From a virus: a stretch of DNA of 64,000 nt. A model generated the notes under the pieces. It was not told the DNA's origin. It did not search any database and was given only the letters and a program-made list of their open reading frames with translations. Below are positions 3,168-64,000 of this stretch, in pieces (positions within the stretch are counted from its first letter, which is position 1; each line of letters begins with the position of its first letter). The DNA is taken from the UHGV virus genome UHGV-0179803. One strand, written 5' to 3'. Both the position numbers and the translations under genes were made by a program.

Positions 3168-3170
3168 TGT

Positions 3171-3290: not shown

Positions 3291-3298
3291 ATGCCACC

Positions 3299-3457: not shown

Positions 3458-3586
3458 GGTGGTTTCCTCCTATGTGTGCAAAACATATCACACCTTGTTG
3501 TGGAAGTCAAGAATAAAATCATGTTGACAACGAGATCAGGATGTGTTATCGTTCGCCAACAAGCGGATAAATGGAGGACTCATAAC

Positions 3587-3886
3587 ATGATTAGTCAAGA
3601 AACAGTACACGATATGGCACTGGCATTCATCCGTGAGGGGTGTGATGTGTGTTACATACCAAACCCTCGCCATCAGAATGACCCTGAAGACCCATCTATT
3701 TATCTTTCTGTATCTGGCAGAGGAATGGACCATCTTATCTATCTCGGACTGAGTAGTAAGAGAAGGGATGAATATATTGAAAAATACCAGCAGGCAATTG
3801 ATCAGGCAAAAGAAGACGCACATGGTGAACAGATGTACAATTTTATTCCTGGTTTGGACGATTGTAAGGATGGAGGTGCTTTATGA
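3587..3886 (+). CDS. hypothetical protein
   Basis: internal ATG of track ORF 3371..3886 preceded by GGAGG; 4-nt overlap with next gene. Confidence 0.45.
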   Translation: MISQETVHDMALAFIREGCDVCYIPNPRHQNDPEDPSIYLSVSGRGMDHLIYLGLSSKRRDEYIEKYQQAIDQAKEDAHGEQMYNFIPGLDDCKDGGAL

Positions 3887-4608
3887 AGAAGGTTTTAGAG
3901 TTTCAATTTGAAATTGCTGAAATAGGTGGAGAAAGACGGAGGCTTGTTAATGCAAGAGATTTGCATAAACAGTTAGGCATTCGTACACGCTTTAGTGACT
4001 GGATTAAAAGGTCATTAATTAATCAAAATTTCTTGCAAGATGTTGATTTTATCGTGGTTCTCAAAAATGAGTATGACGCAAGTAAGTTTGGTGGCATACG
4101 TAAGCAAGAGGAATATTTATGCACTGTTGAGACAGCTAAACACCTTGCTATGATGGCGAAGACACCGAAAGGTAAAGAGGTTCGTAATTACTTTATCGAA
4201 ATTGAAAGAAAGTACCGCGAGTACATGATTGAGCAACGGAGGTTGGCAAGGAAGATGCTTAACATGGAAAGCTCAACAGATATGGTCTGCATAACTGTTT
4301 CGGCGAAGAAAATCGCTAAAGTGCTTGGGATAACCATGTCTGTGTTTGACCTGAATGGATTCTTGAGGACGGATGGTTACAAGCATAAACATTGGTATAA
4401 CGCAACTCTTGCTGGTCAGGAGGTGTGGAATGATTGGGTTATGAAAAGCAAATATGGGGGTCATAGGTTTACAAGCCAGAACAGTATTAACATTGTGCAA
4501 TGCCTGCTTTATGAAAAAGGTATTAGTAAGCTGGAGGATGACATTTGGCAAGAACTTGTTTGGATTGTGTTCATGAAGAATTGGGTTGATTATCTTGCCA
4601 ACAGATGA
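3883..4608 (+). CDS. Bro-N/KilA-N/AntA-like DNA-binding protein (antirepressor-type)
   Basis: N-terminal FQFEIAEIGGERRRLVNARDLHKQLG...FSDWIKR pattern resembles phage Bro-N/AntA N-terminal domains. Confidence 0.45.
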   Translation: MKKVLEFQFEIAEIGGERRRLVNARDLHKQLGIRTRFSDWIKRSLINQNFLQDVDFIVVLKNEYDASKFGGIRKQEEYLCTVETAKHLAMMAKTPKGKEVRNYFIEIERKYREYMIEQRRLARKMLNMESSTDMVCITVSAKKIAKVLGITMSVFDLNGFLRTDGYKHKHWYNATLAGQEVWNDWVMKSKYGGHRFTSQNSINIVQCLLYEKGISKLEDDIWQELVWIVFMKNWVDYLANR

Positions 4609-34341: not shown

Positions 34342-37300
34342 ATGGCAGATGTGAAACTTGTCAGGATTGAGTCCTTGCCTGTAACCACAGAAGTCAACAA
34401 AGAAGAAGACTTTCTGATCGTTCAGCAACCAGACCTCACCCGCAGAACTTCAGTGAAAGATCTGATGGCAGGTGATCCGACTCTCTCCCACGTTGTTAAC
34501 TTCCATGACGGTGGCACCTTGAATGGTCCGATGGACTTCTGCTACTACGAGGAAGAAGATTTATACTTACGCTGGACAGGGGGATTCCCGCATACTGTAC
34601 CTTCATTATCAAGCCCATACGAAGATGGTGACATAACCGATGGTGCATGGGCAGTTTACACTGACCCGTCTTTACGTGACGAGTTAGGTTCCACAATCGG
34701 TGCTTCCCTGGTGTTGACTGAAGATGGTAGAACCATCCAGGATACTATGGATGAAGCTATTGATGCTGCTTTTGAAGCTGTACGTGTGCTGAATGGCCTG
34801 AGCTTTGAAAGAGTGACTGTTGTATCGGATGCTAACTACCTCGAAGGCTATGCAGGCCACATCGTAATGGATGAAAAAGCAACGGTTCATTTCCCTGACG
34901 TTGCAAGAGGTGAAGGCACCTTGAACGGTTTTGTATCGAAAGTTGTGGAAACAGACACTTCTAACGTGTACGAAGCTATTATGCAGGGTGGCACAACTGG
35001 GGCGATCTACACCATCCGTGTTTCTGAAGAAGAACACAAAGCGGTATGCCACAGACATGCATTGAAATCTGAATTGAGTCGTTATGACCAAACCAATCCG
35101 ACTCGCACAGTAATCAAAGCTGGCGATGATGCTAACGCATCCTACTTACAACTTGATGCAACTGGTCGTTGGGGTGTATGGAATCCTTCCATAACCAACT
35201 GGCAACCGTTAGCTATGGAACAAGGTGGTACAGGGGTTCGTGATGCTGCTACGTTCCGTCGTAACTTCGCAGTATTTCACAGATCTCATACTGCACTGGA
35301 AGCTGATTTCAATATCAATAACCTGAAAGGTAATGATGCTGGTGTTTACTATCAGCCTATGTCAGCTCTTGCTACTACTGCTAACGGTTATCCTTGCCAA
35401 CAGGCAGGTGTATTGATTGTATTACAGAACAATGCTAACGGAGGAGATGGTTGCCGTCAGGAATATCATCCGTTCAATACTGAGGATACCTACTATTCTC
35501 GCTGGTACAATGCGGGTGAAAAAACATGGCAAGCGTGGGTAACCTGGGCAAGACCCGTGAACACTAACAGCTTCCGTGAGCGGATAGGGATTGGTGCAGG
35601 TAACTCCCCTAGCTTTAGTAATCTGTATTTGAGAGCTGTAACAGACGACAAAGGTGCTTCTGGTATCCTGAATGGTACTAAATATAAAGCAGATGGTACG
35701 ACAGAAGAGCACGGTTTCCGTATTTACTCTGAAGTCCGCAAGGATAATAAAACTTGGTTAACCTTCCACCTGAAAACAGGTCCAGAAGGTAATCAACTTC
35801 ACAAATACCTCGGCTTAAGCGAAGATGGTAATTTTGAAGTTCCGAACAATATTGCTTGTAATACTTTCGCAGTACGTGATCTGAATACAACCCGTAATAC
35901 TTTACAGGTTAACAGATTTGTACAGGCAGGTTCTGAAACTGCCGTCAACAACCCAACAAACACTGCTAAACTGATCATCACAGAGGGTAAACTTTGGGGT
36001 GCTTACGATATTGCCAACAGTTCTTACATCCCGCTGGCAATAGGCCAGGGTGGTACAGGCGCAAGAGATGCAAATACAGCCTGGGCCAATCTAGGTGGTA
36101 AGGCTCTGGGTAAACTTGACAGCATTGCATTGACCGATAATAAGATCACTGGTGTGCTGCCTGTGTCTAAAGGTGGTACAGGTGCTACAAACGTTAACGG
36201 CATTAAGAGCAGCTTAGGTGTTAACCGTTTAGTCAACTCAAGTGCAGAACGCACCATTGTACAGTCTACGGATGTACAAGGTGACGGCTGCTATCTGCAA
36301 GTCGATAAAGGTGGTCAATGGGGCTGCTTCAACCCAGTAGCTGGTAACTGGCAGGCTTTATCTATTGCTCAAGGCGGTACTGGGGCCAAAGACGCAGCCA
36401 CTGCATGGACCAATTTAGGTGGTCGTGCACTAGGTAAAATGGATTCTATCGGCTTAACCGATGGTAAAATTACAGGTGTACTCCCAGTAAGCAAAGGTGG
36501 TACTGGTTGCGTATCTGATACGGAAGTTAAAGCATGGTTAGAACGCATAGGTATCTCCGGCGGCGGTGAAGGTGGTGGCAGTACAGGTACAGGCGGTTCT
36601 GCTGTAAACACGACACCTTTCGTAATTCAGAAACCTGATGGTGCGGAAGATGGTAAATATTACCCTGTCATTATTAATACATCTGAGGTAAACGCTTCAA
36701 TTGGTACAGACCTCCTTGTTAGTACCAGATCCTCGGTAGGCACTGATCCTATGAACTGTTCTACCTTGAGATGCTGGTATCGTACTGGCGGTTGGACAGA
36801 TAGAGGTGATTCTGCCTATGGTATGATCTCCTTCTACCAGAGTGAAGTGTCCATTTTAGGTTTGCTTGTTCCTACTCGTGGTCAGACAAACTATGCCGCT
36901 ATTTATGTGCATGAAAAAGCGTTCCCTATCTACGTTTATGCAAGTGCTGCGGTGACAGATGTTTGTGCCTATGCTGAAGACTTTGTAGCCAGTACTCCTA
37001 CAGATGGTCGAGATGGGGTTGTGTATAAAGCGGGTATTACAGATATCCACGAAGCAATTTTGGGTGATAATATAACCAACACTCGTCCACTTTTTGACTT
37101 TACTGGTGGTGTAAGCGGGTTCTACTGCAACCAATGGATGTACCGTGGCACCAAAGACAAATGGTTCTTGCAGAACAAAACAGAGATGGGTGAAACCGAA
37201 CTCTGGTATAATGGTCTGAAATACATCTGCCCAGGTAGCCAGACAGCCCGTAAAGCTCTGGAATCTAACGCAGGTTTCATGACGAAATCTGAGGGTACGG

Positions 37301-39012
37301 AAGATTTAATCAACGCCACGTTTACCTCTAAATGCGGTAACTTAGGTCAGGCTGAATTCCGTGCAACAAACAGTGCTGGTCAGATCATTGTTCGTGATAT
37401 GGCAGGTACTGCTCATAAATTCTGGAACTTTAATCCTGACGGCACTTTTAACTCACCTAGCGGTTTTGTTTGTCAGACAGGTGGTGACTGGAACAACCAG
37501 TTCGGGAACAATAACCCATGTAAAGTAATGGCTGGTAGCGCCAACGGGCCTGAAGGTTCGATGGTTGTCGGTGGGCTGTCTGTATCATTCTCTGGAAACT
37601 ATGCTTTCCAGATGGCTGGTCGCCTTGATCAGTTGTATACCAGATCCATTGAAGCTGGTAACCATAGAGCATGGAATAGGGTCTTAACTCACAAAGGTGT
37701 AGGACTTGACACTACAGACCTGGACGCTTATGATGGTACTCGTGAGGGTATTTACCACCAACAAAAAGATGCCGAATGTACATCTGGAAGGCATTACCCA
37801 GCACCATACGCTGGTACTCTAATTGTTTACCAGAACAATGCAAACAATACGAAAGGCTGCGTACAGGAGTACATCACACGTTTTGGTGACAGATATACTC
37901 GTGTTGGTAACATGGATAGAACTGGGTCCACTTTTATGTGGGAAGTTTGGCGGCATGATTCTGGTAAAGCTATCCAGCTACGCCCGAATCGTAATGTTGA
38001 TGAAACAGACAAAGAGTTGCTCATTCATGTTGGTGGTTCTGACAATCCCAGCAACAACACTAGCTTACCTGCTAATAACGCTAGACTGTTCTATTGGGGT
38101 AACGGTAATGATCGTAAGAACGTTCTGGAATTACAAATCGCAGGTACTGATGATGCCGAGCAGGGTATTTCTAATTGGGTATTCCATTGTGGTACTTTAG
38201 ATGATAACTTGCATAAATACTTCTCAGTAAACGGTAACATTAATGGTCAAACCATTACAGCAAGTAAGTTCATGACTACGGACGGTACTGACCTCGCTGC
38301 TGGAGCAGGTGTTCCAGTCGGTGTTCCGCTACCGTGGCCTACTGACACAGCACCTGACGGTTATGTTATCATGGCTGGGCAGGAATTTGATAAAGCTGCT
38401 TACCCCCAATTGGCTGCTGCGTATCCGAGTGGGGTTCTCCCTGACATGCGTGGTCAGACCATTAAAGGTAAACCAGCCACTGGTCGTACTGTTCTGTCAA
38501 CCGAAGCTGACGGTGTGAAATCCCACACCCACGGTGCAAGTTCCAACAGTGTGGATCTTGGTACTAAAACTACCTCTGGGTTTGACTATGGTAGTAAAGA
38601 CACCAGTGAGAGCGGTTGGCACGGTCACGGCCTCAGTGGTAGTGTTGCTTCTGGTGGTGCTCACCAACACGTAAGATCTGGTCCCCGCACGATAGGTAGT
38701 TTTGCTGACGATGTTTTTGCAGACGGGTATACTCTTGAAAGTGCAAACGCCTATGGTAAACTCACCCAGTATGGGTCAGGTACAGCTGCAACAAAAGTAG
38801 CCAAAACATCTAACGATGGTGCCCACAGTCACACCATGAGTGGTGCTTCTATCAGCGGAGCTGGGAATCACACCCACACAGTGGGTATTGGTTCACACAG
38901 CCATACGGTAGGTATTGGTGCTCACAGCCACACAATCACAGTTAATAGCACGGGTAACACGGAAAACACTGTTAAAAACGTGGCATTTAACTACATTGTG
39001 CGTTTAGCGTAA
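34342..39012 (+). CDS. long tail fiber protein with lambda Stf / T4 gp37-type distal domain
   Basis: C-terminus PLPWPTD...[43 protein letters not shown]...SHTHG...GAHSHT...[47 protein letters not shown] matches the His-x-His repeat receptor-binding tip of lambda Stf-type fibers; RBS AGGAGAAACA. Confidence 0.8.
36031..36530 (+). repeat. tandem internal duplication (~100 codons) within the tail fiber gene
   Basis: [51 protein letters not shown] repeated as [51 protein letters not shown]; also seen at nucleotide level. Confidence 0.7.
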
Positions 39013-39095
39013 CAGAAAGGAGAGGATTGCATGAGAACGTTAATCCTCTCTGCTGTTGCAGAGATTAACAAATGCTTCAATCATGAGGGTTAATT

Positions 39096-39551
39096 ATGGC
39101 TTTTGAAATGTCAGATGAAATGCAAGTTGTTCACGTTTACAATGTGACAAATGACACATTTGCCTTCGTGGACGAAGCAGATGTACAAATTCCACCACAC
39201 ACTGGGTTGCCTGCACTGTGCACAACAATTGCTCCACCAGATGTAATCCCTGAAGGCCAGATGGCAATCTTTGATTTTGAGTTGGAAGAGTGGACTCTGG
39301 TGGATTATTTTGATGAAGCAATGGAAGCTGCAATTATGCCTCTGTCTTTGGAAATGGAAGAACCGGAGATTGCAGAGCCAAGCGCAGAACAATTAATGAT
39401 TGCAGAGCAGGAAGCTAAGCTGATTGAAGCACAGAACAGGATTGCTGAGCTGGAAGAACAAGTGGCGAGTTTGCAACGTGTGAACGACCTTGAGAAAAAT
39501 CTTGAGGAGCTTACTCGTATGGTTGAAAAACTGCGTAACAAGGAAGAATAA
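39096..39551 (+). CDS. tail fiber assembly protein (Tfa-like N-terminal domain) with coiled-coil C-terminus
   Basis: N-terminus MAFEMSDEMQVVHVYNVTNDTFAFVDEADVQIPPHTGLPA resembles lambda Tfa / T4 gp38-family N-terminal domain; directly follows the fiber gene. Confidence 0.65.
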   Translation: MAFEMSDEMQVVHVYNVTNDTFAFVDEADVQIPPHTGLPALCTTIAPPDVIPEGQMAIFDFELEEWTLVDYFDEAMEAAIMPLSLEMEEPEIAEPSAEQLMIAEQEAKLIEAQNRIAELEEQVASLQRVNDLEKNLEELTRMVEKLRNKEE

Positions 39552-39576
39552 AATTTAAGTTTCTCCTGATACATTA

Positions 39577-39598
39577 CCCCGCTTCGGCGGGGTTTTTT
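39577..39598 (+). terminator. rho-independent terminator (UUCG tetraloop)
   Basis: CCCCGCTTCGGCGGGG then TTTTTTG. Confidence 0.6.
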
Positions 39599-39608
39599 GT
39601 ATCTGTAA

Positions 39609-39637
39609 TTGACTATTTCGCTGTTTTTTGGTAAAAT
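39609..39637 (+). promoter_or_regulatory. sigma70-like promoter with extended -10
   Basis: TTGACT-17 nt-TAAAAT preceded by TGG. Confidence 0.4.
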
Positions 39638-41171: not shown

Positions 41172-41861
41172 ATGGCAGAGAAGAAAATAGATGTTAACCA
41201 CATTCACACTCTGCCAGATTTCGTTGAGGGGGGTCTTGATTACCTCCCCGGCGATTTTCTGAGAGAGAAAGAAGACCTGACAACATTCCTGTCTATCTAC
41301 CTTAAAAGGTTGCAGACTGTTGATGAGATGTTAGTTGCTCTTGCAGAAGGCCGTCTTCTTAACAATGCCAGCGGTAAATATCTTGATGAGATCGGTAATC
41401 AGCTTGGCATAAAAAGAAATGGCTTGCAAGATGCAGATTATCGTGCTACACTTATTATTCAGCAGGCATCTTTGTCCCGTGGTGGTACGCGTGAGGATGT
41501 AATTTCCACACTACAACAACTGTTGGGCAGAAACAATTTTGATACATGGGCTGGAGATAATTTCAGATTTGACATTAACGTCAGAAAAACCTGTTTCGAC
41601 ATTAGTCAGGCAATTGACCAGATCCTTGATATGCTACCACTGCCAACACATCTGAGATTGACAGAATCGCAGGGCAGGGCATTTGGTTTTGCCGGAGATG
41701 ATACTGCTGCGGGTTTCGGATCAATCTGGGACGATGCGCAGTTCGGAGTAGATGGTATTGCTACTCTGACTTATGTACCGGATGAACGACCTGATTGGGG
41801 TTCCACCACTGTTTGGTGTGAAAGTATTGTTGTTGACGCAACTATTGTTACGGAGGCTTAA
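41172..41861 (+). CDS. tail/baseplate structural protein (hypothetical)
   Basis: ORF track; overlapping start with next gene. Confidence 0.35.
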   Translation: MAEKKIDVNHIHTLPDFVEGGLDYLPGDFLREKEDLTTFLSIYLKRLQTVDEMLVALAEGRLLNNASGKYLDEIGNQLGIKRNGLQDADYRATLIIQQASLSRGGTREDVISTLQQLLGRNNFDTWAGDNFRFDINVRKTCFDISQAIDQILDMLPLPTHLRLTESQGRAFGFAGDDTAAGFGSIWDDAQFGVDGIATLTYVPDERPDWGSTTVWCESIVVDATIVTEA

Positions 41862-43939
41862 TGGCAACCGCTGTATTCAAAGCCTACAGGGATTACACCA
41901 CACTACAAGCAGAATTTATGTACAACACACTGGCAGATACAGCTGTGCCAGGGCGTGACTACACTCACGTCGAAGGTAAGGCGATCATTCCGGTGGATTC
42001 TGCCTCTATAGACATTCCTGTTGATATTGTGGATAAAAAACCTAACAGACTGCCTCGTAGCTTCTATATGCAGTTCCATACCCCCTCACAAGGGACGATG
42101 ATTGGGACCAAACAAGCAAAATGCACGATTACCTCCCAAGAAGATTTGAGCAGACTTGAATGGGGAACACAAGAAGAACGGATGTTCCACCCACGTTATT
42201 GGGTAACAAATTGCCAGCCGACTGAAAGTACGTCAATCAAGTCAGACAACTCCACTGTGATTGTCACGATGACTGCACGTACGATGGGGGGTATGTCTGG
42301 AGCAATCTGGGAAACAGTTGACACATACGACCACTTTGGTGTAGGATACGATGATCATTATGAAATGCGTAACACCAAACTGTGGTTCAGGGTCAAATTC
42401 ACCAATGCTCTTGACTTTACAACCCCAGGTCAGGCCACAATTACTGTCACACTTGTTGACGGTTCAATAATTTACGTCCGTATGTCAGACTATGCTTCTA
42501 ACATCTCGGATGATAAAACTACGGCAGATATTCATCTAAACTTTGAGGATTGTCTGGGTGTTGACCAGAATAACTATTTGATGGCAGTTGACCCCCGTCA
42601 GGTTCGTAAGATCCTGATCCCGTTAATGCCTAAGGACTATGTGGCTAACAGTACAGACGTTCGCACGACCAATGTTGACTGTGAACTTCGCATTGACATG
42701 TTGGAGCCGGACACTGGTTGGAAATATATGCAGCTTAATGATTTGACTGTTGAAGGTCACGATTTAAGAGCTTGCACTGCATATGATGATATGTGGAATG
42801 TTTCTCCGGCGCGTGTTCTTTATAACCTTCAGAAACTTGGCTACCGTGGTAGAATCAACCACTATTGCGGAATGAGCCATTATTATAATTACACATGGAG
42901 CAACGCAACCCATAAATGGGAGATCGATAAATCAGGGACTCTGAACAAAGCTGCCAAAGCGTGGCATGAGGATTTTGCTTATAATCTGACTCGCTACGGA
43001 TTCACAGATGCAATGTTCTCTATCAGCATGGAGCTTTACAGCGATGCCTGTCCTCTGGAATGGACCCAACGTGAATGGGACGATAGCTACGCTAAGACAG
43101 GGTATACACCTTGCAGCTACCTGTTATCACCTTGTATCGAAGAAGGTATGACATTCTTATTGAACGTCTTTAAAAACTTCGCTCAGATTTTAAAAACTCA
43201 AAGCCTGCCTGTTATTATGCAGATTGGCGAACCGTGGTGGTGGTACAATACAGACTCCCGCAGACCTTGTATCTATGACTACACCACAAAAGAGATGTTC
43301 TATGATGAAACAGGGGAGTATGCACTTGACATAGGCACTATCGACAACCCATTAACTGGTGGTGTTTATGACAGATACATCGCATTCTGTCGCGACAAAT
43401 TTGGTCAGAGAATTGCAACACTCGCTACTGGCATCAAGGCAGCATTCCCTGGTGCTCAAGTTACAGTTCTTGTCTTCTACCCCACCATTGTTGGTACACT
43501 GATGGAAGAACTTAACCTGCCAGACCAGTACAAGAAAGAGTCAGGAGTACTTGACTTCTTCTGTTCAGAATGCTATGATTGGGTTATGAATGGGGAAATA
43601 GAACATTCATTTGAAGCTATTGAGCACCCTCGCAAAACCTTAGGTTGGAACAGGAACGAAATCCATTACCTCGCAGGGTTTGTACCTGGTAAAGATTTAG
43701 CTCCAGTGTATGGCTATGACCCAGAGAAGAACTATCAGGAATTTTTGTGGAGAGTGATCTGCGGTAACATCTGTACTACTGAGTATCATTACCCAGAGGT
43801 ACAGCAGTACGTATGGGCTTATCCGCAACTTATGAATGATAGTATCACATTCAGTGCGAAAGAGTCAACTGTTGTTCACATGGGGCAGACAGCCCTTAAA
43901 AGCTACACAGAAGATGTGACACCACCAGACCTTTCATAA
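41861..43939 (+). CDS. tail/baseplate structural protein (hypothetical, 692 aa)
   Basis: ORF track; position-based. Confidence 0.4.
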   Translation: MATAVFKAYRDYTTLQAEFMYNTLADTAVPGRDYTHVEGKAIIPVDSASIDIPVDIVDKKPNRLPRSFYMQFHTPSQGTMIGTKQAKCTITSQEDLSRLEWGTQEERMFHPRYWVTNCQPTESTSIKSDNSTVIVTMTARTMGGMSGAIWETVDTYDHFGVGYDDHYEMRNTKLWFRVKFTNALDFTTPGQATITVTLVDGSIIYVRMSDYASNISDDKTTADIHLNFEDCLGVDQNNYLMAVDPRQVRKILIPLMPKDYVANSTDVRTTNVDCELRIDMLEPDTGWKYMQLNDLTVEGHDLRACTAYDDMWNVSPARVLYNLQKLGYRGRINHYCGMSHYYNYTWSNATHKWEIDKSGTLNKAAKAWHEDFAYNLTRYGFTDAMFSISMELYSDACPLEWTQREWDDSYAKTGYTPCSYLLSPCIEEGMTFLLNVFKNFAQILKTQSLPVIMQIGEPWWWYNTDSRRPCIYDYTTKEMFYDETGEYALDIGTIDNPLTGGVYDRYIAFCRDKFGQRIATLATGIKAAFPGAQVTVLVFYPTIVGTLMEELNLPDQYKKESGVLDFFCSECYDWVMNGEIEHSFEAIEHPRKTLGWNRNEIHYLAGFVPGKDLAPVYGYDPEKNYQEFLWRVICGNICTTEYHYPEVQQYVWAYPQLMNDSITFSAKESTVVHMGQTALKSYTEDVTPPDLS

Positions 43940-43952: not shown

Positions 43953-44993
43953 ATGGCTAAACCTAGTTTTCCTCTGGAGATATGGGCAGCGGAGGATCAA
44001 ATCCTCCCCAACTCCCATAAACAGAACAAGATGCGCCCCATTGACGACCTCTGGAGAAAAGGTTGGGATAAAGGGCAGAAACCATCGTGTGAAGAACTGA
44101 ACTATCTCCTGAACATGATGGCTACCTGGGCTAAATACATTTCTGAAGATCAGATCCCGTCTATGGAAGGACGTTATCTTATTAAGGACAACAACCTGAG
44201 TGATCTTCTGAATGTAGAGATTGCCCGTAAAAACCTTGGCATTGTTACCCAGGCTGAGACTGACGCTCGTTACGTTAAGATCACTGGTGACACAATGACA
44301 GGCCCTCTGGGGTTGCAACGTATTAATTTTGCGGCAGCGGAAACAGATGCGGCATGGATAGAAACCACAATCAGCCCAGATAAAACCTTGTTGGACTTCT
44401 GTCTGATGGATAACGTTGGTTCATTTGACGATGGTGGTACTTCCACAGTTGATGCTTTCCGTTGGAGATTCCAGCCTACACAACCAGATATCAACCCAGA
44501 GTTTACACTGATGCACCTGAATGCTATCTCTGTTAACCGTGCACTTCTCAAAGTCATCGGTAACATTGAAGCACAAGATAACGTGCGTTCCAACACAGTC
44601 ACCATCACTGGTACAGCTTCCTTCGGTAACGTCAGCGTATCGAGCCAGTTGACCACAGGTAGCTTCTATGCTAACGGTGGTTCCAACGTTGATAACATGA
44701 CAGTCCGTAGCCAGTATTGTGTGGTTGGTGGTCGCCATGTAGTTCGTTCAGTCAACGGTGTGAACGCAGATGGTAATGGTAACCTGACTATCAGTATCCC
44801 AGCTTCAGGCGTTCAGGATATTCGCTGCGGCGGTATGTTGATCGATGGGGTTTCTGATAACAGGGTACGTCCGGGTTATGTTATGAGAGGATGGGCTAAT
44901 GGTAATAAAAAAGAACTCCGTGGTGCAGGTTACTGGGCAGCTCCGCTACAGAAACTTGTTAACGGACAGTGGATTACCGTTCAGACATTATAA
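43953..44993 (+). CDS. tail fiber / receptor-binding protein, paralog 1
   Basis: N-terminus MAKPSFPLEIWAAED and C-terminus GYVMRGWANGNKKELRGAGYWAAPLQKLVNGQWITVQTL shared with 46032..47096; NLSDLLNVEIARKNLG fiber-type motif. Confidence 0.6.
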   Translation: MAKPSFPLEIWAAEDQILPNSHKQNKMRPIDDLWRKGWDKGQKPSCEELNYLLNMMATWAKYISEDQIPSMEGRYLIKDNNLSDLLNVEIARKNLGIVTQAETDARYVKITGDTMTGPLGLQRINFAAAETDAAWIETTISPDKTLLDFCLMDNVGSFDDGGTSTVDAFRWRFQPTQPDINPEFTLMHLNAISVNRALLKVIGNIEAQDNVRSNTVTITGTASFGNVSVSSQLTTGSFYANGGSNVDNMTVRSQYCVVGGRHVVRSVNGVNADGNGNLTISIPASGVQDIRCGGMLIDGVSDNRVRPGYVMRGWANGNKKELRGAGYWAAPLQKLVNGQWITVQTL

Positions 44994-45009
44994 TTGAGGG
45001 TTATAGATT

Positions 45010-45627
45010 ATGATTAAAATAGCTACAGGTTTTGAGTTGTATGATCCGCAAGAGCCTCGCCCAGAGGTGTTGGCTCTTGATGAAGATCAGCCACAAACCT
45101 TGGAATTAACAGAGCAGGAGATTGAAGATTACGCTCGCTATTCTGCTTACTTCCTTCGCAACGAGCACGGTGACTGGTATGCCCAGACCCGAGAATTACA
45201 GCAGATTGCCCAGGAATCTGGAGTAGAATACCTGTTTGCAGTCATAGAAGCTGATGGTTTACTGAAAATTGTAACCACGGACCCAACAGGTATTTTCCCC
45301 AGCAACGGTCTTCAAGTCCTGCATGGTAAACGAGAGGAGTTCCCGGAAGACATTGAAAACATGATCAATGCCTACCGCTGGAATGGTGAGAAATTTGTTG
45401 TTGATAACAAACCTTACATCGATGCTGCACAACAGGTTGTCGAAGAAGAGTTGCAATGGGCTACAGCAAGGCTTGGAGCTTTCAGCGACATGCTGGACTT
45501 GGATTATATACTCTCTCCTGCACAGGAGCAGTTTGTTAAGGAATTAAAACTTTACAGGATTCATCTACTGGAGATTGATATAAACAAAGCCCCCAACATA
45601 CATATCCCTGATCGCCCAGCCCTCTAA
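45010..45627 (+). CDS. tail fiber assembly chaperone (Tfa-like C-terminal domain)
   Basis: C-terminal LKLYRIHLLEIDINKAPNIHIPDRP resembles the conserved Tfa C-terminal motif (..YRV.L.RVD....PDI.WP..P). Confidence 0.6.
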   Translation: MIKIATGFELYDPQEPRPEVLALDEDQPQTLELTEQEIEDYARYSAYFLRNEHGDWYAQTRELQQIAQESGVEYLFAVIEADGLLKIVTTDPTGIFPSNGLQVLHGKREEFPEDIENMINAYRWNGEKFVVDNKPYIDAAQQVVEEELQWATARLGAFSDMLDLDYILSPAQEQFVKELKLYRIHLLEIDINKAPNIHIPDRPAL

Positions 45628-45636
45628 GGAGGTAAT

Positions 45637-45951
45637 GTGGAACTGGACTTTGGTACGCTTTTTGAGATAATCATGAGCGCTATTGTCCCTATAGGTGTCT
45701 GGATTTTTGGTCAGTGGCACGTAAAATGGAAAGCCGTCTCTAAAAGATTGGATGATTTAGAGAAGGACCTTATTTTGGTGAAAAGCAATATGGTTACGAA
45801 AGACAGACTTGACGCGGTGCTAAATCAGCGTCTTAAAGATATTCAAGATAACCTTGACGAACTAAGGAAAGAGGTCAAAGGTGACGTTAATGGATTGCGT
45901 AGTGATATTCAACAAATTATCCAGATTCTTCTCAGTAACAAGGAGAAATAA
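45637..45951 (+). CDS. membrane-anchored coiled-coil protein (holin or spanin-like candidate)
   Basis: GTG start after AGGAGG; one N-terminal TM segment IIMSAIVPIGVWIFGQW then coiled-coil region. Confidence 0.4.
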   Translation: MELDFGTLFEIIMSAIVPIGVWIFGQWHVKWKAVSKRLDDLEKDLILVKSNMVTKDRLDAVLNQRLKDIQDNLDELRKEVKGDVNGLRSDIQQIIQILLSNKEK

Positions 45952-46031
45952 CCTGCGGCAAGGAAGCCTCTGGTTGCATTTTGAGGAGTTTAGTGCTAAA
46001 ATAATGTCAAGAATTTTAGTCAGGAGAAAAC

Positions 46032-47096
46032 ATGCCAAAACCAACTTATCCGCTTGAGGTGTGGGCATATCAGGATGTGATGCTTGACACCACGCGAGAA
46101 TTAAATAAGGCCCAGCCTAGTAAGGAACAAAGGTTAGCTGGTTGGGACTTCAGTCAGAGAATCGCTGTTGAACATATGAATTTCGAGTTCAATATGATTA
46201 GTAACTGGCTGAAATACTTGAACGAAGAGGTTGTTCCTGGTTGGGATGATCGATTTTTAAAAGTTGCAAATAACCTAGCAGAAATACCGGATAAAGCTGC
46301 TGCAAGACAAAACTTAGGTTGCCTGACAATAGAGGAGATGGATGACCGTTATGTTCACCTAACAGGGGATACCTTGAAAGGTACTATGACTTTAGGGGTT
46401 ACAAGGATTAATTTTAAATCTGCTGATACAGACTCGTGTGCGATTTATTGTTCCACGATTGCAGATACCCCAGGGTATAAAGGTGGGGATAAAACCTATT
46501 TCGATTTTCGTATGGCAGACAACTACGGTACAGATGACATTGAGGCATCTTACTATACAGGCACAGAAGGATTCCGCTACAGATTCCACCCCGCAGGCGG
46601 TAGCTTGTTCACATTGATGAAATTGTGTGCTATCTCTCCAAACCGTGGGAGATTGTCCGTAGTAGGTGACATTATTGCTGCTGATAACTTACGTGCTGGT
46701 TCTATGAATGGTAACACTGTTGATATCTGGAGTACAGCTTCTGTATCAAGTCAGACACTGTGTGGTAACCTCTATACCAACAGTTTTAACTGCGATAGCC
46801 ACACAACCCGTAGTAATTACCATGTTGTAGGTGGAAGACATGTTTGCAGGTCAGTAAACGGTGCCACAGCGGATGGTAACGGCAACTTAACATTAACACT
46901 ACCTCAACCCGCTATCTCTGATGTTCGTTGTGGAGGTATGCTGATAGATGGCACAGGTGATAACCGCGTAAGGGCTGGCTACGTAATGCGTGGTTGGCAG
47001 AATGGTAATAAGAAACAATTGCGTGGCGCTGGCTATTGGGCAGCTCCACTCCAGAAACTGGTAAATGGTCAATGGATCACAGTACAGACATTGTAA
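46032..47096 (+). CDS. tail fiber / receptor-binding protein, paralog 2
   Basis: termini shared with 43953..44993 (MPKPTYPLEVWAYQD ... GYVMRGWQNGNKKQLRGAGYWAAPLQKLVNGQWITVQTL) with a divergent centre. Confidence 0.6.
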   Translation: MPKPTYPLEVWAYQDVMLDTTRELNKAQPSKEQRLAGWDFSQRIAVEHMNFEFNMISNWLKYLNEEVVPGWDDRFLKVANNLAEIPDKAAARQNLGCLTIEEMDDRYVHLTGDTLKGTMTLGVTRINFKSADTDSCAIYCSTIADTPGYKGGDKTYFDFRMADNYGTDDIEASYYTGTEGFRYRFHPAGGSLFTLMKLCAISPNRGRLSVVGDIIAADNLRAGSMNGNTVDIWSTASVSSQTLCGNLYTNSFNCDSHTTRSNYHVVGGRHVCRSVNGATADGNGNLTLTLPQPAISDVRCGGMLIDGTGDNRVRAGYVMRGWQNGNKKQLRGAGYWAAPLQKLVNGQWITVQTL

Positions 47097-58584: not shown

Positions 58585-59076
58585 TTATTTTTCATGTAAG
58601 TACTCCTCTGGTTCAGCTTCAGGTTCTGGATAGTCCTCTATAACGAGAGGCCAGTTATTCTCTTTCGCTTTACGTTTGTACATCACTTCATCCCTGGCGA
58701 ACTCCAGTTGATTCTTAGCCGGGATACCTGCTGGATTATCATCAATCCAGATATCTGGGAAGATGCCCATCGTAGCCATATAAGCTGCTTTCTGTATACC
58801 AGAAGTATAGAAGATATCCATACCCAGTTTTTCAGCCCACATCTGAATGTCACAGCTGTCCTGTTCAGGGAAACGGAATGTGACAAAGCAGCAATACCAA
58901 CCAGCCTTCTGCAATGCGCCCACAAAAGAGGCGAAGATAAAAGGCTCTGCATTGAACGTATTATCGAAGTCAAATGCAGCAACTTTCGTGCCATTACGTG
59001 TTTCAAACGGCAGAGAAGTGGTTAAGCTACTGTAATCAAAAATATCCCCACTAACGTCATCATAGCCTGAATCCAT
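58585..59076 (-). CDS. HAD-superfamily phosphatase-like protein (possible nucleotidase)
   Basis: motif I VAAFDFDNT (DxDxT) near the N-terminus and DIWIDD near the C-terminus. Confidence 0.5.
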   Translation of the reverse strand: MDSGYDDVSGDIFDYSSLTTSLPFETRNGTKVAAFDFDNTFNAEPFIFASFVGALQKAGWYCCFVTFRFPEQDSCDIQMWAEKLGMDIFYTSGIQKAAYMATMGIFPDIWIDDNPAGIPAKNQLEFARDEVMYKRKAKENNWPLVIEDYPEPEAEPEEYLHEK

Positions 59077-59086
59077 AGCCTACTCC

Positions 59087-59356
59087 TTATTTTTTCAAGA
59101 ATTTGTATGCAAAAGCATGTGTGTTTTCCGCAGCTTCAATGATACAACGAATCTTGCGATCCAGTTCTTCATTTTCTTTTACCAGCTGCGGGATCTCTTT
59201 GGCATGAACTGTGAACTCGGCAAAGTCCATATCCAAGATCTGGTTGATACGGGCATCATTAGCTTTGGCTTGCATATTCATACGATATGCAGCAGACAGA
59301 CCTTCCTGTACCATCGACAGGCCGTATTCAAGGTAGCGTAACTGTTCTTTAGTCAT
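59087..59356 (-). CDS. hypothetical protein
   Basis: internal ATG (MTKEQLRYLEY...) of track ORF 59087..59416. Confidence 0.35.
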   Translation of the reverse strand: MTKEQLRYLEYGLSMVQEGLSAAYRMNMQAKANDARINQILDMDFAEFTVHAKEIPQLVKENEELDRKIRCIIEAAENTHAFAYKFLKK

Positions 59357-59452
59357 CGTAGTGGTCCTTCGTTCTGTTGATGAGGTATTTATACCACAAC
59401 GTACGGGGTATGTCAACAGTTTTCTTTCAATAAATCAGTTGTGTAGGAAAAG

Positions 59453-59478
59453 ACAAAAATAAACCCCGCCGAAGCGGG
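59453..59478 (-). terminator. rho-independent terminator (minus strand, UUCG tetraloop)
   Basis: minus strand reads CCCCGCTTCGGCGGGG then TTTATTTTTG; same hairpin as 39577 on the + strand. Confidence 0.5.
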
Positions 59479-59488
59479 GTCTATGCGA

Positions 59489-59632
59489 TTAGAAGTTCAT
59501 CTGCATATATCCCATCGGATGTGCTCCTGCCATGCTTTCAGCTACTGCACCCCAATCCACGTCCATAGCATGAACCCCTAAAACTACCAAACCCATTGCA
59601 ACCAGTGCTAAAACTTCAATTCTCATTTTCAT
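59489..59632 (-). CDS. small secreted/membrane peptide (47 aa) with signal peptide
   Basis: MKMRIEVLALVAMGLVVLGVHA signal-like N-terminus; RBS GAGGGG. Confidence 0.35.
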   Translation of the reverse strand: MKMRIEVLALVAMGLVVLGVHAMDVDWGAVAESMAGAHPMGYMQMNF

Positions 59633-59642
59633 AACCCGCCCC

Positions 59643-59795
59643 TCATTTATCGAATGCACTAAGATTATCAATGCAGAAATCTTTTACTTCATTTTTGTCT
59701 GCACCTTGTACAAGGATTTCACCCGGACAAGCCTGATCCATAGAATCTGCAAAATCTTCTTTAAAGCAAGCTAAGTTGTCAATATCGTATTTCAT
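59643..59795 (-). CDS. small Cys-containing protein (50 aa)
   Basis: ATG after AAGGAG at ideal spacing; internal start of track ORF 59643..59858. Confidence 0.35.
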   Translation of the reverse strand: MKYDIDNLACFKEDFADSMDQACPGEILVQGADKNEVKDFCIDNLSAFDK

Positions 59796-59896
59796 GGCTG
59801 ACTCCTTATTTATCTGTTGTACTGTGCTTCTCTTCATTTGATGGAAGCATCTTAACACAACTGATCTTCCATGTCAAGAAATATTTCTACTTTCTT

Positions 59897-60502
59897 TTAG
59901 TCAAATTGTAATATCAGATCGACCAGTTTACTTGGTTCGTTGATATACTCATCTTTACCGTATGGCACAGGTCTCATTTCGTGGATAGGCTGTTCTTCTA
60001 CGTACGGTCTGATAAATTCTGCCAGCACCAGTTCCACAACCCCTGGCCCACAAGGTGATTCCAGCATTCTCCGGTGGAGTTTGGGATCTCTCAGTGCCAG
60101 AAGTGGACCGTAACCATCCATTCTGCCATACAATAGATACTCCGCAGAGTGGTGGATGAAAGCCTTCTCGTAGCGTCTGCGTTGGTTTAAGGTCGCTATG
60201 ATTATCTCTGCATAGGCATCCTGTAGAGCCTTCTTAGCGTGTTGGATGTTGTTATCCCCAGACTCCAGTAAGCCTTCCAGGATTCTTACACGACTCATGT
60301 GGACCTGATTCTCACTGACGTGGGCGATAATATTCCCTGTCTGATCGAAGTTTTCCATCAGCCTCCACACGATGTTGACACTGCCTGTCTGGGATAATGA
60401 CTTGGCGTACCAGCCTTGCTTGTGGAAGTACCAGTCAGCGTCCTCCATCAGGATTTTACTGAAGTCTGCTTTCAGTTGTTCTTTGCTGTGCGGATCATTC
60501 AT
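59897..60502 (-). CDS. hypothetical protein
   Basis: start re-placed at MNDPHSK... (GGGAG 6 nt upstream), abutting the stop of the upstream gene. Confidence 0.4.
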   Translation of the reverse strand: MNDPHSKEQLKADFSKILMEDADWYFHKQGWYAKSLSQTGSVNIVWRLMENFDQTGNIIAHVSENQVHMSRVRILEGLLESGDNNIQHAKKALQDAYAEIIIATLNQRRRYEKAFIHHSAEYLLYGRMDGYGPLLALRDPKLHRRMLESPCGPGVVELVLAEFIRPYVEEQPIHEMRPVPYGKDEYINEPSKLVDLILQFD

Positions 60503-61088
60503 TGCCATCTCCCAACAATTGAAGCAGAAGGTTGATACCTTCGTTTGGGTCATCATCCTCACCGTAGTGTTTGGCAGACATTGCATAGCCTTCACCATCC
60601 ACATACTGTTTGATGTATTTGAACAGGCTCGAACGCAGCATATCCATCCCCATCGGATCTCGCAGTAAGCGATCCAACAGTTTTGGTGCACGTTTTTCCA
60701 TCACACAAGGGCCACCGTTATTGCCACAACCATTACGGTTAGTCAGGAGGTCAACTCCGAACTGTAGCAGCTCTTTCTTGTGCTTCTCGCGTTTTCTCCA
60801 GATCTTGACGTGCATTTCGCCATCAACATCGTGGACCATGTTGCGAAGATCACTTATGCTGGGGTGCTCATTGTTCTTCAAAGCCCTTATCATTACTTTA
60901 CACTTAGTAGTGTAAGTTTCTTCCCTGTAGTACCGTGGTACTGGGAAGATATACTTCTCGAATATCATCTTGAAGGCGTTGAAGCGAGAACTGGCAAAAT
61001 AATTATCCCAGTAGTCCTTCCACTCAAATTCAAGAAAAGTATCCAGATCCCTCTGGAGATTGTTAGTAAAAAATTCTACATTGCTCAT
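60495..61088 (-). CDS. hypothetical protein
   Basis: ORF track; 4-nt overlaps with both neighbours. Confidence 0.4.
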   Translation of the reverse strand: MSNVEFFTNNLQRDLDTFLEFEWKDYWDNYFASSRFNAFKMIFEKYIFPVPRYYREETYTTKCKVMIRALKNNEHPSISDLRNMVHDVDGEMHVKIWRKREKHKKELLQFGVDLLTNRNGCGNNGGPCVMEKRAPKLLDRLLRDPMGMDMLRSSLFKYIKQYVDGEGYAMSAKHYGEDDDPNEGINLLLQLLGDGNE

Positions 61089-61327
61089 AGCTCTACCACC
61101 GTACCTTCCAGGTCTTCTTCAATCAGGTCATCCAGCTTAACCACCTTGATAAGGCCACGACGGATGTACAGATCCATCATCTCACGATAGTTTTTGAATG
61201 GATCGTCACTGTTACTGACTACAACAACTTTATGGTCTTGACGAGCTTCTTGCCATACCAGACGGCAACGCATCAGGTGCCCCAGTACATCTTTATCCAT
61301 TTCTGGCTTACGTGCAAACATTATCAA
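61085..61327 (-). CDS. hypothetical protein
   Basis: ORF track; overlapping ATGA junctions with neighbours. Confidence 0.4.
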   Translation of the reverse strand: MIMFARKPEMDKDVLGHLMRCRLVWQEARQDHKVVVVSNSDDPFKNYREMMDLYIRRGLIKVVKLDDLIEEDLEGTVVEL

Positions 61328-61758
61328 TCCCCCGTAAAATATTCTTTAAGTTTTTCTGTTAAAAAGTTTTGTAATTCCTGCTCGTCGAGCTTCTCGTCAA
61401 AGTCAGCAGCAGCTGCCTCAACACACATATGATAGATCGCAATTTCAAGGTCGTCAAGCCCCAACATCAATTCGACCATCATATTTTCATCATCTGTTGG
61501 GTGAGCCGGATCAGAGATCATATCCATTGGTACGATGACTTTCCAGTCTTCTTTAGTCCCCACAGGACCTTGAATTTTACGGCTAATCTCTATCAGATGC
61601 TTGGTGTAAAAGGCTTCGTACTGAACAATCTCGTAGTTATTACGGTAGTAAACGTAGTCGAGGTAAGTACCCAGCCGAAGCTGGCATACTTCAACCCCAA
61701 ACCACTCCTTCTTCCACTGTTTTTCGCCTGAAGATTGGCATTGGCGTTTAGTCAGCAT
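61324..61758 (-). CDS. hypothetical protein
   Basis: ORF track; part of the same overlapping minus-strand operon. Confidence 0.4.
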   Translation of the reverse strand: MLTKRQCQSSGEKQWKKEWFGVEVCQLRLGTYLDYVYYRNNYEIVQYEAFYTKHLIEISRKIQGPVGTKEDWKVIVPMDMISDPAHPTDDENMMVELMLGLDDLEIAIYHMCVEAAAADFDEKLDEQELQNFLTEKLKEYFTGD

Positions 61759-61773
61759 GGCTGGGTTCTCCTG

Positions 61774-62052
61774 TTATTGACGAGCGTATCCGCAGAGGAC
61801 GATGGTTGCATTAATTTCTGTTGCAGATAAGTCCCCATCCATAATTTGTAAAGAGAAATCTTCCAGGTCTACAGTGTAGATGCCTCCGTCATAAGAGTTA
61901 TCCTCCATGATTAGCACGTTGCGTACTTCAGCAGCCACTATGATTTCTACAATCGTACCTGGTTTAAAATTTTTGAGAGGTTTGACTACAGGTTCAAGCT
62001 CTCTTAAAGATACAGATGTTGCCATAATGTGTCTCCTATTTAACGTTTTCAA
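61774..62052 (-). CDS. hypothetical protein
   Basis: ORF track. Confidence 0.35.
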   Translation of the reverse strand: MKTLNRRHIMATSVSLRELEPVVKPLKNFKPGTIVEIIVAAEVRNVLIMEDNSYDGGIYTVDLEDFSLQIMDGDLSATEINATIVLCGYARQ

Positions 62053-63487
62053 TCAAATCTATAGTTCTGCCAAAAGATGGCGTATAGTCTTTGTTACCAC
62101 CTTCTGTCCTAATCCAGAGCGTATTATACTTATCCCAACCGTTGCTGTCAACCTCTTTTTCAAAACCTGATTCAAGAAACAGGTCAGTAAAGATAATAAC
62201 ATCCTGAACATCAGACAGATGTTTATCCAGATATTCAAACACACAACCTGCACGAGTACCGAACGTAGACTTGATCTGGTAGTCTGGCATCTGTGCAATA
62301 TTCTGGTGAGTGTATACCTGAACATCACCAACTTCTGTTGACCAACAGAACATCGTAACTTTAAACTCTTTATACAGGCTGCACAACCCGCTGATTTCTG
62401 AAGTGATACGTTTCAGAGTCCGTGGAGAGATAGAGCCTGATACGTCGAATGCCACCACTATATCAATCGTTTTCTCCTGGTTGCGACCTGGGAGAATAAC
62501 AGACTGGCGATTGTTGATAGCCCCTCTGCTACGCAATGTGTGAGTTAAAGCACCAGAGCGACGGGCCGGACGACGATAAGTCATATCAGCTTTCCGGTGT
62601 GACAACATACGTTGACGAATCACATCCAGATAGTTGATGATAGGCTTATTGCGATTCTTGATCCACTCACGCACCTGTGCCGGACCTTCACCACCTGCCG
62701 CTTTCATAGCAGCTTCCATCATGTCACCAGAGTCCTGCATTGCTGCATCTTTCTCTGCCTGAGTCATTGCTGGTTGGTTGCCTTTTTCGTAGCCCATAGC
62801 TTCACTGAGGTTGTCAGACTGGCCTTGTCCGTCCCCCATGTGAGTATCTGTGGCTCGTAGACCACCGCCACTAGCTTTACCTGGTTGTTGCTGTTGCTGT
62901 TGTTGTCTTTCCAGGTCTGCATAAACTTTTTCAGTTATCCACCCGTGGTATTTCTTATCACAATAACAATATTCAAGAAATGCAAACGGCTGGCCTTTTT
63001 TCAGCTGTGTGCGAATCCCGTGTGGGAACATTGCACATGGCGGTTCGGCTAAATCTACCATCAGACCAGTATTAATAACGTGGTCAGCGGCCTGATTAAA
63101 CAGGTTGTGATCAGAGAAGGCTTTACCACGGCTGAGGTGATCAGCAATGATGTGACCTATCTCATGGCACAGGAGAAAAGCAACCTCTTTAAGCGTTTTA
63201 GGTGCATAGAAAGCGTCCAGCTGTTCTTTCATCTTATCATCGCACTTAGGCAGAATGATAGCACGGCGTTCCTGGCAAACACCTATGATGAACTCTGGAT
63301 TGTAGTAAATCCGCTTATGGTCTGTGGCGATAGTGTCACACCATGTGTGGTTCTCAACAAATTGTAAGCCTGACAGGAGCACACCGTAGAAGCTCAATCT
63401 TTCCATGAGCCACATGCGAGCACCCTGAAGCATACGTAGAGCTTCTGGTTTCTGTGCTAAAATCAGTTCTGAACTTCTTGCGTCCAC
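62036..63487 (-). CDS. vWA-domain protein with N-terminal HExxH metallopeptidase-like domain
   Basis: HEIGHIIADH (HExxH) in the N-terminal half; MIDAS-type DVSGS in VAFDVSGSISPRT in the C-terminal half; poly-Q linker. Confidence 0.6.
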   Translation of the reverse strand: MDARSSELILAQKPEALRMLQGARMWLMERLSFYGVLLSGLQFVENHTWCDTIATDHKRIYYNPEFIIGVCQERRAIILPKCDDKMKEQLDAFYAPKTLKEVAFLLCHEIGHIIADHLSRGKAFSDHNLFNQAADHVINTGLMVDLAEPPCAMFPHGIRTQLKKGQPFAFLEYCYCDKKYHGWITEKVYADLERQQQQQQQPGKASGGGLRATDTHMGDGQGQSDNLSEAMGYEKGNQPAMTQAEKDAAMQDSGDMMEAAMKAAGGEGPAQVREWIKNRNKPIINYLDVIRQRMLSHRKADMTYRRPARRSGALTHTLRSRGAINNRQSVILPGRNQEKTIDIVVAFDVSGSISPRTLKRITSEISGLCSLYKEFKVTMFCWSTEVGDVQVYTHQNIAQMPDYQIKSTFGTRAGCVFEYLDKHLSDVQDVIIFTDLFLESGFEKEVDSNGWDKYNTLWIRTEGGNKDYTPSFGRTIDLIENVK

Positions 63488-63538
63488 TACGATCCTCCAA
63501 AGGGGGCAAAAGCCCCCTCGTTGTTATTTTCTGCTATC

Positions 63539-63988
63539 TTACACCTTTTTAAAGATGTTTGCAAGCTCTGCCATCGTCATGTTAGTCGTTTTCATGAGGT
63601 CAGTCATCGCCTTTTCCATCACAGGTGTAACTACCATGAAGTTGCCTTTGACAAAACCTTTATCGCGATCAGCCACCAGGATAGATTTAAGGCCGTCACC
63701 CAGACGTTCACCAGTCAGTGCACAACATTTTTTCTGGTACACTTGTTTGAACTGTCCGAATGTCAGATCTACTTTCATGCCTATATCATAGAAGACCTGA
63801 CAGTAGAAAGCGTAAGCCTGAGCAATAGCCACATCTGGTGGTAATGCCTGAGGTAGCGGTTTAGGCTCTTCAGGAGCGTCTGTACGGTCCTCAACAACTT
63901 CGGCTTGTACTTCTTCAACTTCAGCCGTTTCTTCAACCACAGGCTCACTCATGATGTTCCTGACATGTTTTTCAGCACGTTTGTCCAT
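63539..63988 (-). CDS. hypothetical protein (frame may extend past the window edge)
   Basis: ORF track; acidic N-terminus; upstream sequence leaves the window. Confidence 0.35.
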   Translation of the reverse strand: MDKRAEKHVRNIMSEPVVEETAEVEEVQAEVVEDRTDAPEEPKPLPQALPPDVAIAQAYAFYCQVFYDIGMKVDLTFGQFKQVYQKKCCALTGERLGDGLKSILVADRDKGFVKGNFMVVTPVMEKAMTDLMKTTNMTMAELANIFKKV

Positions 63989-64000
63989 GAACTCACGTAA

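Follow-up and report, generated by a model that had tools for sequence, protein, structure and literature searches.

The 64,000-nucleotide (nt) stretch of virus genome UHGV-0179803 analyzed here (the window) encodes a long, or lateral, tail fiber of 1556 amino acids (aa) and, directly downstream of it, a 151-aa protein related to the fiber chaperone Tfa. In our preferred reading, to which we assign a probability of roughly 0.6, the two genes form a receptor-binding module in which an rV5-type shaft has received a T4 gp37-type tip by exchange, and in which the tip is served by a minimal Tfa-like chaperone made of an N-terminal domain, a linker and a self-associating helix. Coordinates of all features are collected in Table 1.

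The fiber tip and its shaft

The last 244 aa of the fiber match the structure of the T4 gp37 tip (PDB 2XGF, gp37 aa 785-1026) with an E value of 6.7e-69, aa 1313-1556 aligning with chain residues 18-242. Over about 230 aa the identity to related tips is 54-66%, namely 54% to lambda Stf (E 6e-75), 56% to T4 gp37 (E 9e-67) and 62-66% to the best-matching T-even tips. A Collar domain (PF07484, aa 1327-1374, E 6e-11) precedes the needle, seven His-x-His (HxH) motifs at aa 1395, 1427, 1441, 1495, 1510, 1519 and 1528 all align with T4 sites in the same order, and the terminal NTENTVKN[IV]AFNYIVRLA motif of the fiber is conserved with the T4 and lambda tips. In the T4 tip (2XGF), the HxH sites bind iron. 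A first-pass annotation made from the sequence letters had named a lambda Stf/T4 gp37-type tip, and the alignments to both proteins bear this out; the 1556-aa fiber that it described is indeed a single open reading frame (ORF), in which every quoted motif is present.

The likeness to T4 breaks down between the third and fourth HxH. This segment, which corresponds to the distal head of the T4 tip (2XGF), aligns poorly with T4, is about 17 aa longer and is unrelated to it in sequence. It is also the least conserved stretch among the six loci that we compared, with a column identity of 0.51 at 38761-38814 versus 0.89-0.96 in the collar. Since it combines poor alignment to T4 with the lowest conservation among the six loci, the head segment is likely to set receptor specificity.

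The T4 and lambda systems resemble the window in having a chaperone gene directly downstream of the fiber gene (PMC9659904). However, the window tip sits neither on a gp34-37 fiber nor on a lambda side fiber, but on an rV5-type shaft with an N-terminal Tail_spike_N domain. The fiber gene stands where Vequintavirus genomes have their lateral tail fiber gene (bas58_0027 in phage Bas58, HeinrichReichert; phrog_6578), with upstream genes identical in kind. Its product is collinear with rV5-type lateral tail fibers over aa 1-1308, at 48-62% identity including Tail_spike_N, the repeats and both knob-like domains, and it is over this part only that the rV5-type fibers match. Beyond it, the fibers of Bas58 and JEP1 have an intramolecular chaperone of the Peptidase_S74 type (Pfam E 7e-15 in Bas58), the last element of which is the helix DDKITALEEQVKKLTEVVTGLQEKLK, whereas in the window fiber a Pfam search finds no C-terminal Peptidase_S74, and the Collar and needle stand there instead. 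Nine of the 13 shaft homologues in the database carry PF13884 and two carry Collar. Ends of the S74 type are common among Vequintavirinae fibers, and needle tips like that of T4 have been described for other groups (PMC12143355). As the similarity to rV5-type fibers stops at aa 1308, after which Bas58 and JEP1 continue into S74, we conclude from these alignments that a self-chaperoned tip was exchanged, at a domain boundary near aa 1308, for a gp37-type tip that needs a separate chaperone. Module shuffling, which the first-pass annotation had suspected, did occur, but it was of another kind than the exchange of chaperone domains imagined there, in that a gp37-type tip and a separate chaperone took the place of an S74 end. 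In this fiber, known modules are combined into a new mosaic, an expected case of tail-fiber mosaicism.

The 151-aa chaperone and its proposed mode of action

The N-terminal domain of the 151-aa protein is about 49% identical to the N-terminus of lambda Tfa, up to 54.5% identical to Tfa proteins of P2-like prophages and 33% identical to T4 gp38. It matches phrog_105 (E 4e-15), and in precomputed Pfam annotations relatives of the protein are labeled PF28596 (Caudo_TAP_N). When 1.84 billion representative proteins were searched exhaustively with HMMER, 84 matched, nearly all of them over the N-domain only and ending by about residue 77; the exceptions are the protein's own cluster and fragments (P0001, P0009-P0012) and two further proteins, P0079 and P0081. 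The remainder of the protein departs from the Tfa pattern. The Pfam search gave no Caudo_TAP match (PF02413), either for the whole protein (E<=0.01) or for the tail (E<=0.1), nor does it have the EDHRGK, W.G.W and W..YR...WP motifs, present in lambda Tfa and partly also in T4 gp38; the tail gave just sub-threshold matches to generic coiled-coil families. AlphaFold2 models aa 97-150 as one helix with a predicted local distance difference test score (pLDDT) of 91-97, while the N-domain and linker are modeled with low confidence, in the case of the N-domain because the alignment is shallow. Hydrophobic residues recur in the helix at a spacing of 3-4, and the part of the protein beyond the N-domain is strongly acidic, with 36 D/E versus 8 K/R and an isoelectric point (pI) of 4.05.

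Thus, in comparison with lambda Tfa and T4 gp38, which carry both PF02413 and PF28596, the protein has a homologous N-domain, the same position after the fiber gene and presumably the same client, but it is 151 aa long where they are 183-207 aa, and it has an acidic linker and one long helix in place of EDHRGK, the W.G.W hairpin and Caudo_TAP. It is a new variant within the Tfa class. The Tfa/gp38-type N-domain, the acidic coiled-coil-like tail and the lack of the usual C-domain had all been recognized in the first-pass annotation; what does not hold is its view of where that C-domain went, as discussed with the short tail fibers below. Several other models for the protein were discarded. A T2/S16-type gp38 adhesin does not fit, as Gly occurs only twice in the sequence and Gly-rich motifs with hypervariable segments are missing; T4 gp38 cannot serve as a model for the helical tail because it has the ordinary Tfa layout; and a gp57A-like helix was rejected on a BLASTP E value of 9.6 and the lack of a PF17594 match in the tail (T4 gp57A as control, E 1.9e-51).

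The helix is conserved. Among the six loci, the ratio of nonsynonymous to synonymous substitution rates (dN/dS) is 0.08 in the N-domain, 0.39 in the linker, where insertions and deletions also occur among relatives, and 0.14 in the helix, ratios that indicate purifying selection on the C-terminal helix; together with its conservation across the six loci, the value of 0.14 rules out that the helix is a decaying remnant. All six loci have the same gene order and a chaperone of 148-155 aa, while their fibers span 1274-1617 aa. Outside its own clade, HMMER and profile searches found a relative of the helix in P0079 only. In this 110-aa protein, a short linker connects a Tfa_N domain with a helix. 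Its identity to the window protein is 33% over 122 aa, the helix included, and its gene immediately follows that of a 271-aa Collar-domain fiber on a 50-kb contig of an unrelated metagenomic phage. Both proteins match phrog_1766 (127 positions, labeled "tail fiber protein", uncharacterized). The helix of P0079 is much shorter, and its fiber is a simple one with one HxH. Given the dN/dS pattern, P0079 and phrog_1766, the architecture is recurrent and under selection. A profile search that included P0079 added no further members to the family, and a tblastn search of P0079 against phage genomes matched the N-domain only; the two matches that were inspected, of 163 aa in Vibrio phage X29 and 236 aa in Pseudomonas phage phi3, are not short proteins.

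We propose the following mechanism. The gp37/Stf-type tip, unable to fold alone, would have arrived together with a chaperone of its own, the product of the gene immediately downstream. The N-domain of this chaperone would bind the conserved C-terminal part of each nascent fiber chain, presented by the flexible acidic linker of 26 residues, while a single amphipathic helix of 54 residues, in the place of the multi-helix Caudo_TAP, would self-associate as a coiled coil, probably a trimer. Such a trimer would hold three N-domains, and through them three fiber C-termini, in register, so that the iron-binding needle could fold from its distal end. Pam3 gp25 and Mu Tfa each have a variable N-domain that binds the distal fiber, connected by a flexible linker to a helical C-terminal domain that assembles into a trimeric bundle (PMC9608196). 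By analogy, we propose that the window protein works in the same way, with the bundle cut down to one self-associating helix. The likeness lies in the fiber-binding N-domain, the flexible linker and the C-terminal helical oligomerization module, but where Pam3 gp25 and Mu Tfa have several helices in a conserved bundle as C-terminal module, the window protein has one putatively oligomerizing helix without detectable homology. Column identity among the six loci is 0.87-0.97 in the chaperone N-domain versus 0.51-0.75 in the fiber head, and conservation of the N-domain while the head varies suggests that it binds the conserved needle or the fiber C-terminus. Binding of this kind fits the report that lambda Tfa can replace gp38 (as cited in PMC9659904).

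Several points weigh against this proposal. In a survey of this tip family, the chaperones were of 184-207 aa only (PMC9659904), which makes the 151-aa protein atypical and means that a functional chaperone without the C-domain has no experimental precedent. The helix does not keep a single heptad register: the register shifts near aa 126-132, and the best core fraction is 0.44. Its "a" positions hold I/V and its "d" positions Leu, with one Asn, and together with a sub-threshold bZIP match this pattern would suit a dimer no less than a trimer. The oligomer is proposed from a monomer model in which the N-domain has low confidence. Finally, T4 also needs gp57A, of which no homologue was found within the 64-kb window.

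Origin of the helix and alternative readings

Three candidate sources of the helix (the Tfa C-domain, the terminal helix of S74 ends, and P0079) were compared using shuffle-based tests. The p-values lie between about 0.001 and 0.03 and none is decisive. One reading of the results derives the helix from Caudo_TAP by shortening and strong divergence, such that the protein would be an ordinary Tfa minus its loop and the terminal W..YR...WP segment. A gapped BLASTP alignment does extend over aa 102-148 onto the helices of lambda Tfa (QVAS..LQ..DLE..EE); a profile of the Tfa C-domain scores the tail at 5.3-5.9 bits, which was reached by 55 of 2000 shuffles (p ~0.03); and the pairwise score has a p-value of ~0.011-0.014. 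Such significance is marginal for a coiled-coil sequence, however, and it stands against the missing Pfam match at E<=0.1 and the loss of all of the defining motifs. Short Tfa proteins exist in nature (P0023 with 152 aa and P0074 with 141 aa), but both keep the terminal motifs, and the tail of P0079 does not resemble lambda Tfa (p 0.6). We regard this origin as unlikely.

Alternatively, the helix could be what is left of the fiber end that was replaced. If recombination inside the coding sequence of an incoming tfa gene had fused it to the 3' end of the fiber gene already present, the helix would be the terminal coiled coil of the ancestral Peptidase_S74 chaperone, and the 151-aa protein would be a hybrid, made by tip-swap recombination, of the N-domain of a trans-acting Tfa and the trimerizing helix of a cis-acting S74. 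The ends can be compared directly, the rV5-type fiber finishing in ...DDKITALEEQVKKLTEVVTGLQEKLK and the window protein containing ...NRIAELEEQVASLQ...ELTRMVEKLRNKEE, and a profile of 12 S74-type ends scores the helix at 9.5 bits. Of 2000 composition shuffles one attained this value, as did one of 2000 heptad-preserving shuffles. Trans-acting chaperones are also known to resemble intramolecular chaperones in structure (PMC9608196, PMC10579305). However, the pairwise comparison of the two helices gives BLAST E values of only 0.05-0.1 and a shuffle p-value of ~0.012, and this source is one of three that were tried, with shuffles that leave the motifs of natural coiled coils unmodeled. P0079 belongs to a phage without an rV5-type fiber, yet it has both the junction between N-domain and linker and the helix in common with the window protein (p 0.001-0.008). 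As P0079 shares junction and helix, acquisition as one unit is favored: the chaperone gene was most likely acquired whole, helix included, and while formation of a hybrid gene in situ is possible, the specific S74 hybrid strikes us as improbable. Were it correct, it would be direct evidence that the two chaperone classes can swap oligomerization modules.

A different role for the protein was also considered, in which it would be a virion component retained on the tip as a cap or accessory, with the acidic helix serving host interaction instead of folding. The Tfa proteins of Mu and Ur-lambda are present in mature virions, although T4 gp38 and Pam3 gp25 are not retained (PMC9608196), and chaperone "caps" have been proposed (PMC10579305). 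The strong acidity of the protein (pI 4.05) and the strict conservation of its helix would agree with such a role, whereas the presence of just two Gly residues, none in Gly-rich adhesin motifs, would not. Moreover, a cap is compatible with a folding role and does not exclude it. We consider this reading very improbable, and retain the gp37-type tip swap with a minimal folding chaperone as the preferred reading.

Fiber length, short tail fibers and genomic setting

Table 1. Features of the long-fiber and short-fiber loci in the window.
Feature	Position	Strand	Residues	Description
Long (lateral) tail fiber gene	34342..39012	+	1-1556	Single ORF; phrog_6578, tail fiber, E 1.5e-275
N-terminal anchor domain, Tail_spike_N	34495..34653	+	52-104	PF18668, E 1e-9
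Knob-like domain, copy A	35311..35841	+	324-500	YP..AG.LIV.QNNAN-type motif
Repeat region	35857..36546	+	506-735	Units of ~108 aa, each a spacer plus a QGGTG...VSKGGTG piece
Central conserved domain	36610..37716	+	757-1125	Best phrog_6578 stretch is aa 757-1128
Knob-like domain, copy B	37717..38241	+	1126-1300	YP..AG.LIV.QNNAN-type motif; last domain common to rV5-type fibers
T4 gp37/lambda Stf-type tip	38278..39009	+	1313-1556	Collar, needle with seven HxH, variable head; phrog_295, E 3e-107
Variable head segment	38671..38823	+	~1444-1494	HxH 3 to HxH 4; poor T4 alignment, ~17 aa longer
Intergenic spacer	39013..39095	+		83 nt between fiber and chaperone genes; two RNA hairpins and a 20-codon ORF, 39031-39093
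Chaperone gene	39096..39551	+	1-151	Directly 3' of fiber gene after 83-nt spacer; terminator only after this gene
Chaperone N-domain	39096..39305	+	1-70	Lambda-Tfa type (Caudo_TAP_N)
Acidic Pro/Glu-rich linker	39306..39383	+	71-96	8 D/E, no K/R; pLDDT <50
C-terminal amphipathic helix	39384..39551	+	97-151	In place of Caudo_TAP domain
Intrinsic terminator	39576-39600	+		Closes fiber-chaperone unit
Promoter	39609-39637	+		TTGACT-N17-TAAAAT, following the terminator
Short-tail-fiber locus	43953..47096	+		STF1 43953-44993, Tfa 45010-45627, 104-aa ORF, STF2 46032-47096; apart from long-fiber system

The shaft contains the two internal duplications that had been noted in the first-pass annotation, and both proved real. 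The QGGTG...VSKGGTG unit at aa 565-625 is 70% identical to that at aa 673-733 (E 3e-27), GGTG motifs occurring at aa 295, 570, 611, 678 and 719. The YP..AG.LIV.QNNAN segment (quoted there as YP.QQAG.LIV.QNNAN) at aa 324-400 is 36% identical to that at aa 1126-1203 (E 3e-9), and the likeness of the two knob copies, as judged by eye, runs on to a common W.FH...LHKY motif. The spacer of the repeat units is present three times (aa 237-300, ~506-575 and 617-683); its first copy is 37% identical to the third (E 2e-14) and matches the second with an E value of 3e-6. At the DNA level the duplicated copies are only 66-83% identical, which indicates that the duplications are old. Both knob copies are already present in rV5-type fibers, while the window fiber has one repeat unit more than these, Bas58 included. 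Among the six otherwise collinear phages, the range of fiber lengths (1274-1617 aa) reflects gain or loss of a knob-plus-repeat block between QGGTG motifs: the fibers of L005-L007 (1274-1280 aa) lack roughly aa 310-557, and those of L008-L010 reach 1603-1617 aa. Fiber length among relatives thus varies through the repeat units and the duplicated knob. Knob copy B is variable in sequence among them as well (column identity 0.62-0.77 at 37693-38172). Near the N-terminus, aa 46-148 match PDB entries 9occ_G, 9lna_A, 9d84_A and 9d80_D. The central domain (aa 757-1125) has neither a Pfam nor a PDB match, and an AlphaFold2 monomer model of aa 740-1312 was unusable (pLDDT 41.8).

The usual Tfa C-domain had been placed in the gene at 45010..45627. 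A Caudo_TAP domain is indeed present there (E 5.4e-6), but it lies within a full-length Tfa of 205 aa that matches phrog_136 over aa 35-204 and has no detectable similarity to the 151-aa protein, and the idea of a split gene, with 45010..45627 as the displaced half of the long-fiber chaperone, was therefore rejected. The gene stands between two short tail fiber (STF) genes, whose products STF1 and STF2 are paralogues of 346 and 354 aa, 51% identical and with near-identical C-terminal ends; STF1 matches the PDB entry "Short tail fiber" 9cuy (E 2.4e-21). A locus of short fibers with a chaperone like Mu GpU is conserved across Vequintavirinae (PMC8594841; PMC12143355). Judged by its domain content and its neighbors, the gene at 45010..45627 encodes the complete, conserved chaperone of the two paralogous short tail fibers. 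The 104-aa ORF of the same locus is conserved too (phrog_5345).

The spacer between fiber and chaperone genes folds with a minimum free energy of -31.5 kcal/mol (z -3.74). Its first hairpin spans the Shine-Dalgarno sequence and start of the 20-codon ORF (MRTLILSAVAEINKCFNHEG) and its second spans the Shine-Dalgarno sequence of the chaperone gene, and these hairpins may tune translation of the chaperone. The spacer is near-identical across the six loci, but the flanking backbone is conserved to the same degree; special conservation of the 20-codon ORF was accordingly rejected, as it is not above backbone level. An Rfam search of the spacer returned no family at the gathering threshold. Downstream of the chaperone gene, Bas58 has a similar terminator stem and promoter ahead of the same baseplate gene, and the stem CCCCGCTTCGGCGGGG is found there too. 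The TTG at 39609 that the ORF list gives as the start of this baseplate-J-like gene is part of the -35 box of the promoter; the true start is the ATG at 39672, yielding a protein of 496 aa that is 79% identical to that of Bas58. A 692-aa protein encoded farther on, at 41861-43939, strongly matches the TIM-barrel and N-domain families of "non-contractile tail sheath protein" (PF23845, E 2.8e-78; PF23844), and its Bas58 counterpart is annotated as a lateral fiber with glycosidase and deacetylase domains.

These comparisons identify the window as part of a divergent Vequintavirinae-like myophage related to the rV5-type phages. Vequintavirus genomes match its head, tail and baseplate genes at ~75% nucleotide identity, covering just 23-30% of a 24-kb query. 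The fiber region is not covered by any record in the phage collection except for an 867-nt piece of phage JEP1, which is 81.7% identical to fiber nt 2863-3729, partly inside the central domain; nowhere else does nucleotide identity to a known phage exceed 80%. Metagenome contigs that keep this gene order, the 145-kb L005 as well as L006-L010, are the nearest relatives, and the 198 member sequences of chaperone cluster P0001 indicate that the clade has been sampled often. In Bas58 the S74 end of the fiber is followed by four genes, bas58_0028-0031, without a homologue anywhere in the 64-kb window, where the chaperone gene fills their slot. In a Vequintavirus locus (L003 12901-18068), these four encode a 196-aa fiber protein, a 183-aa baseplate protein, a cell wall hydrolase and a 1199-aa FnIII lateral fiber. 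Their absence from the window means that its clade may have one fiber set fewer than Vequintavirus. The GC skew is negative at window positions 1-4000 and 56000-64000 and positive in between, which suggests that the plus-strand block of structural genes is flanked by minus-strand genes.

The locus appears to record an exchange between self-chaperoned (S74) and trans-chaperoned tips on one and the same shaft, and can thereby guide where fibers may be cut and rejoined. Fiber tips and their chaperones are the parts that are exchanged to re-target phages and tailocins, and the 151-aa protein would be a natural minimal chaperone, in which ~70 residues that bind a gp37/Stf-type tip are followed by a linker and one helix. 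If the proposed reading is correct, it would speak for a conserved Tfa C-domain that need only oligomerize, and expression of T4/lambda-type tips could draw on a helper that is compact and designable.

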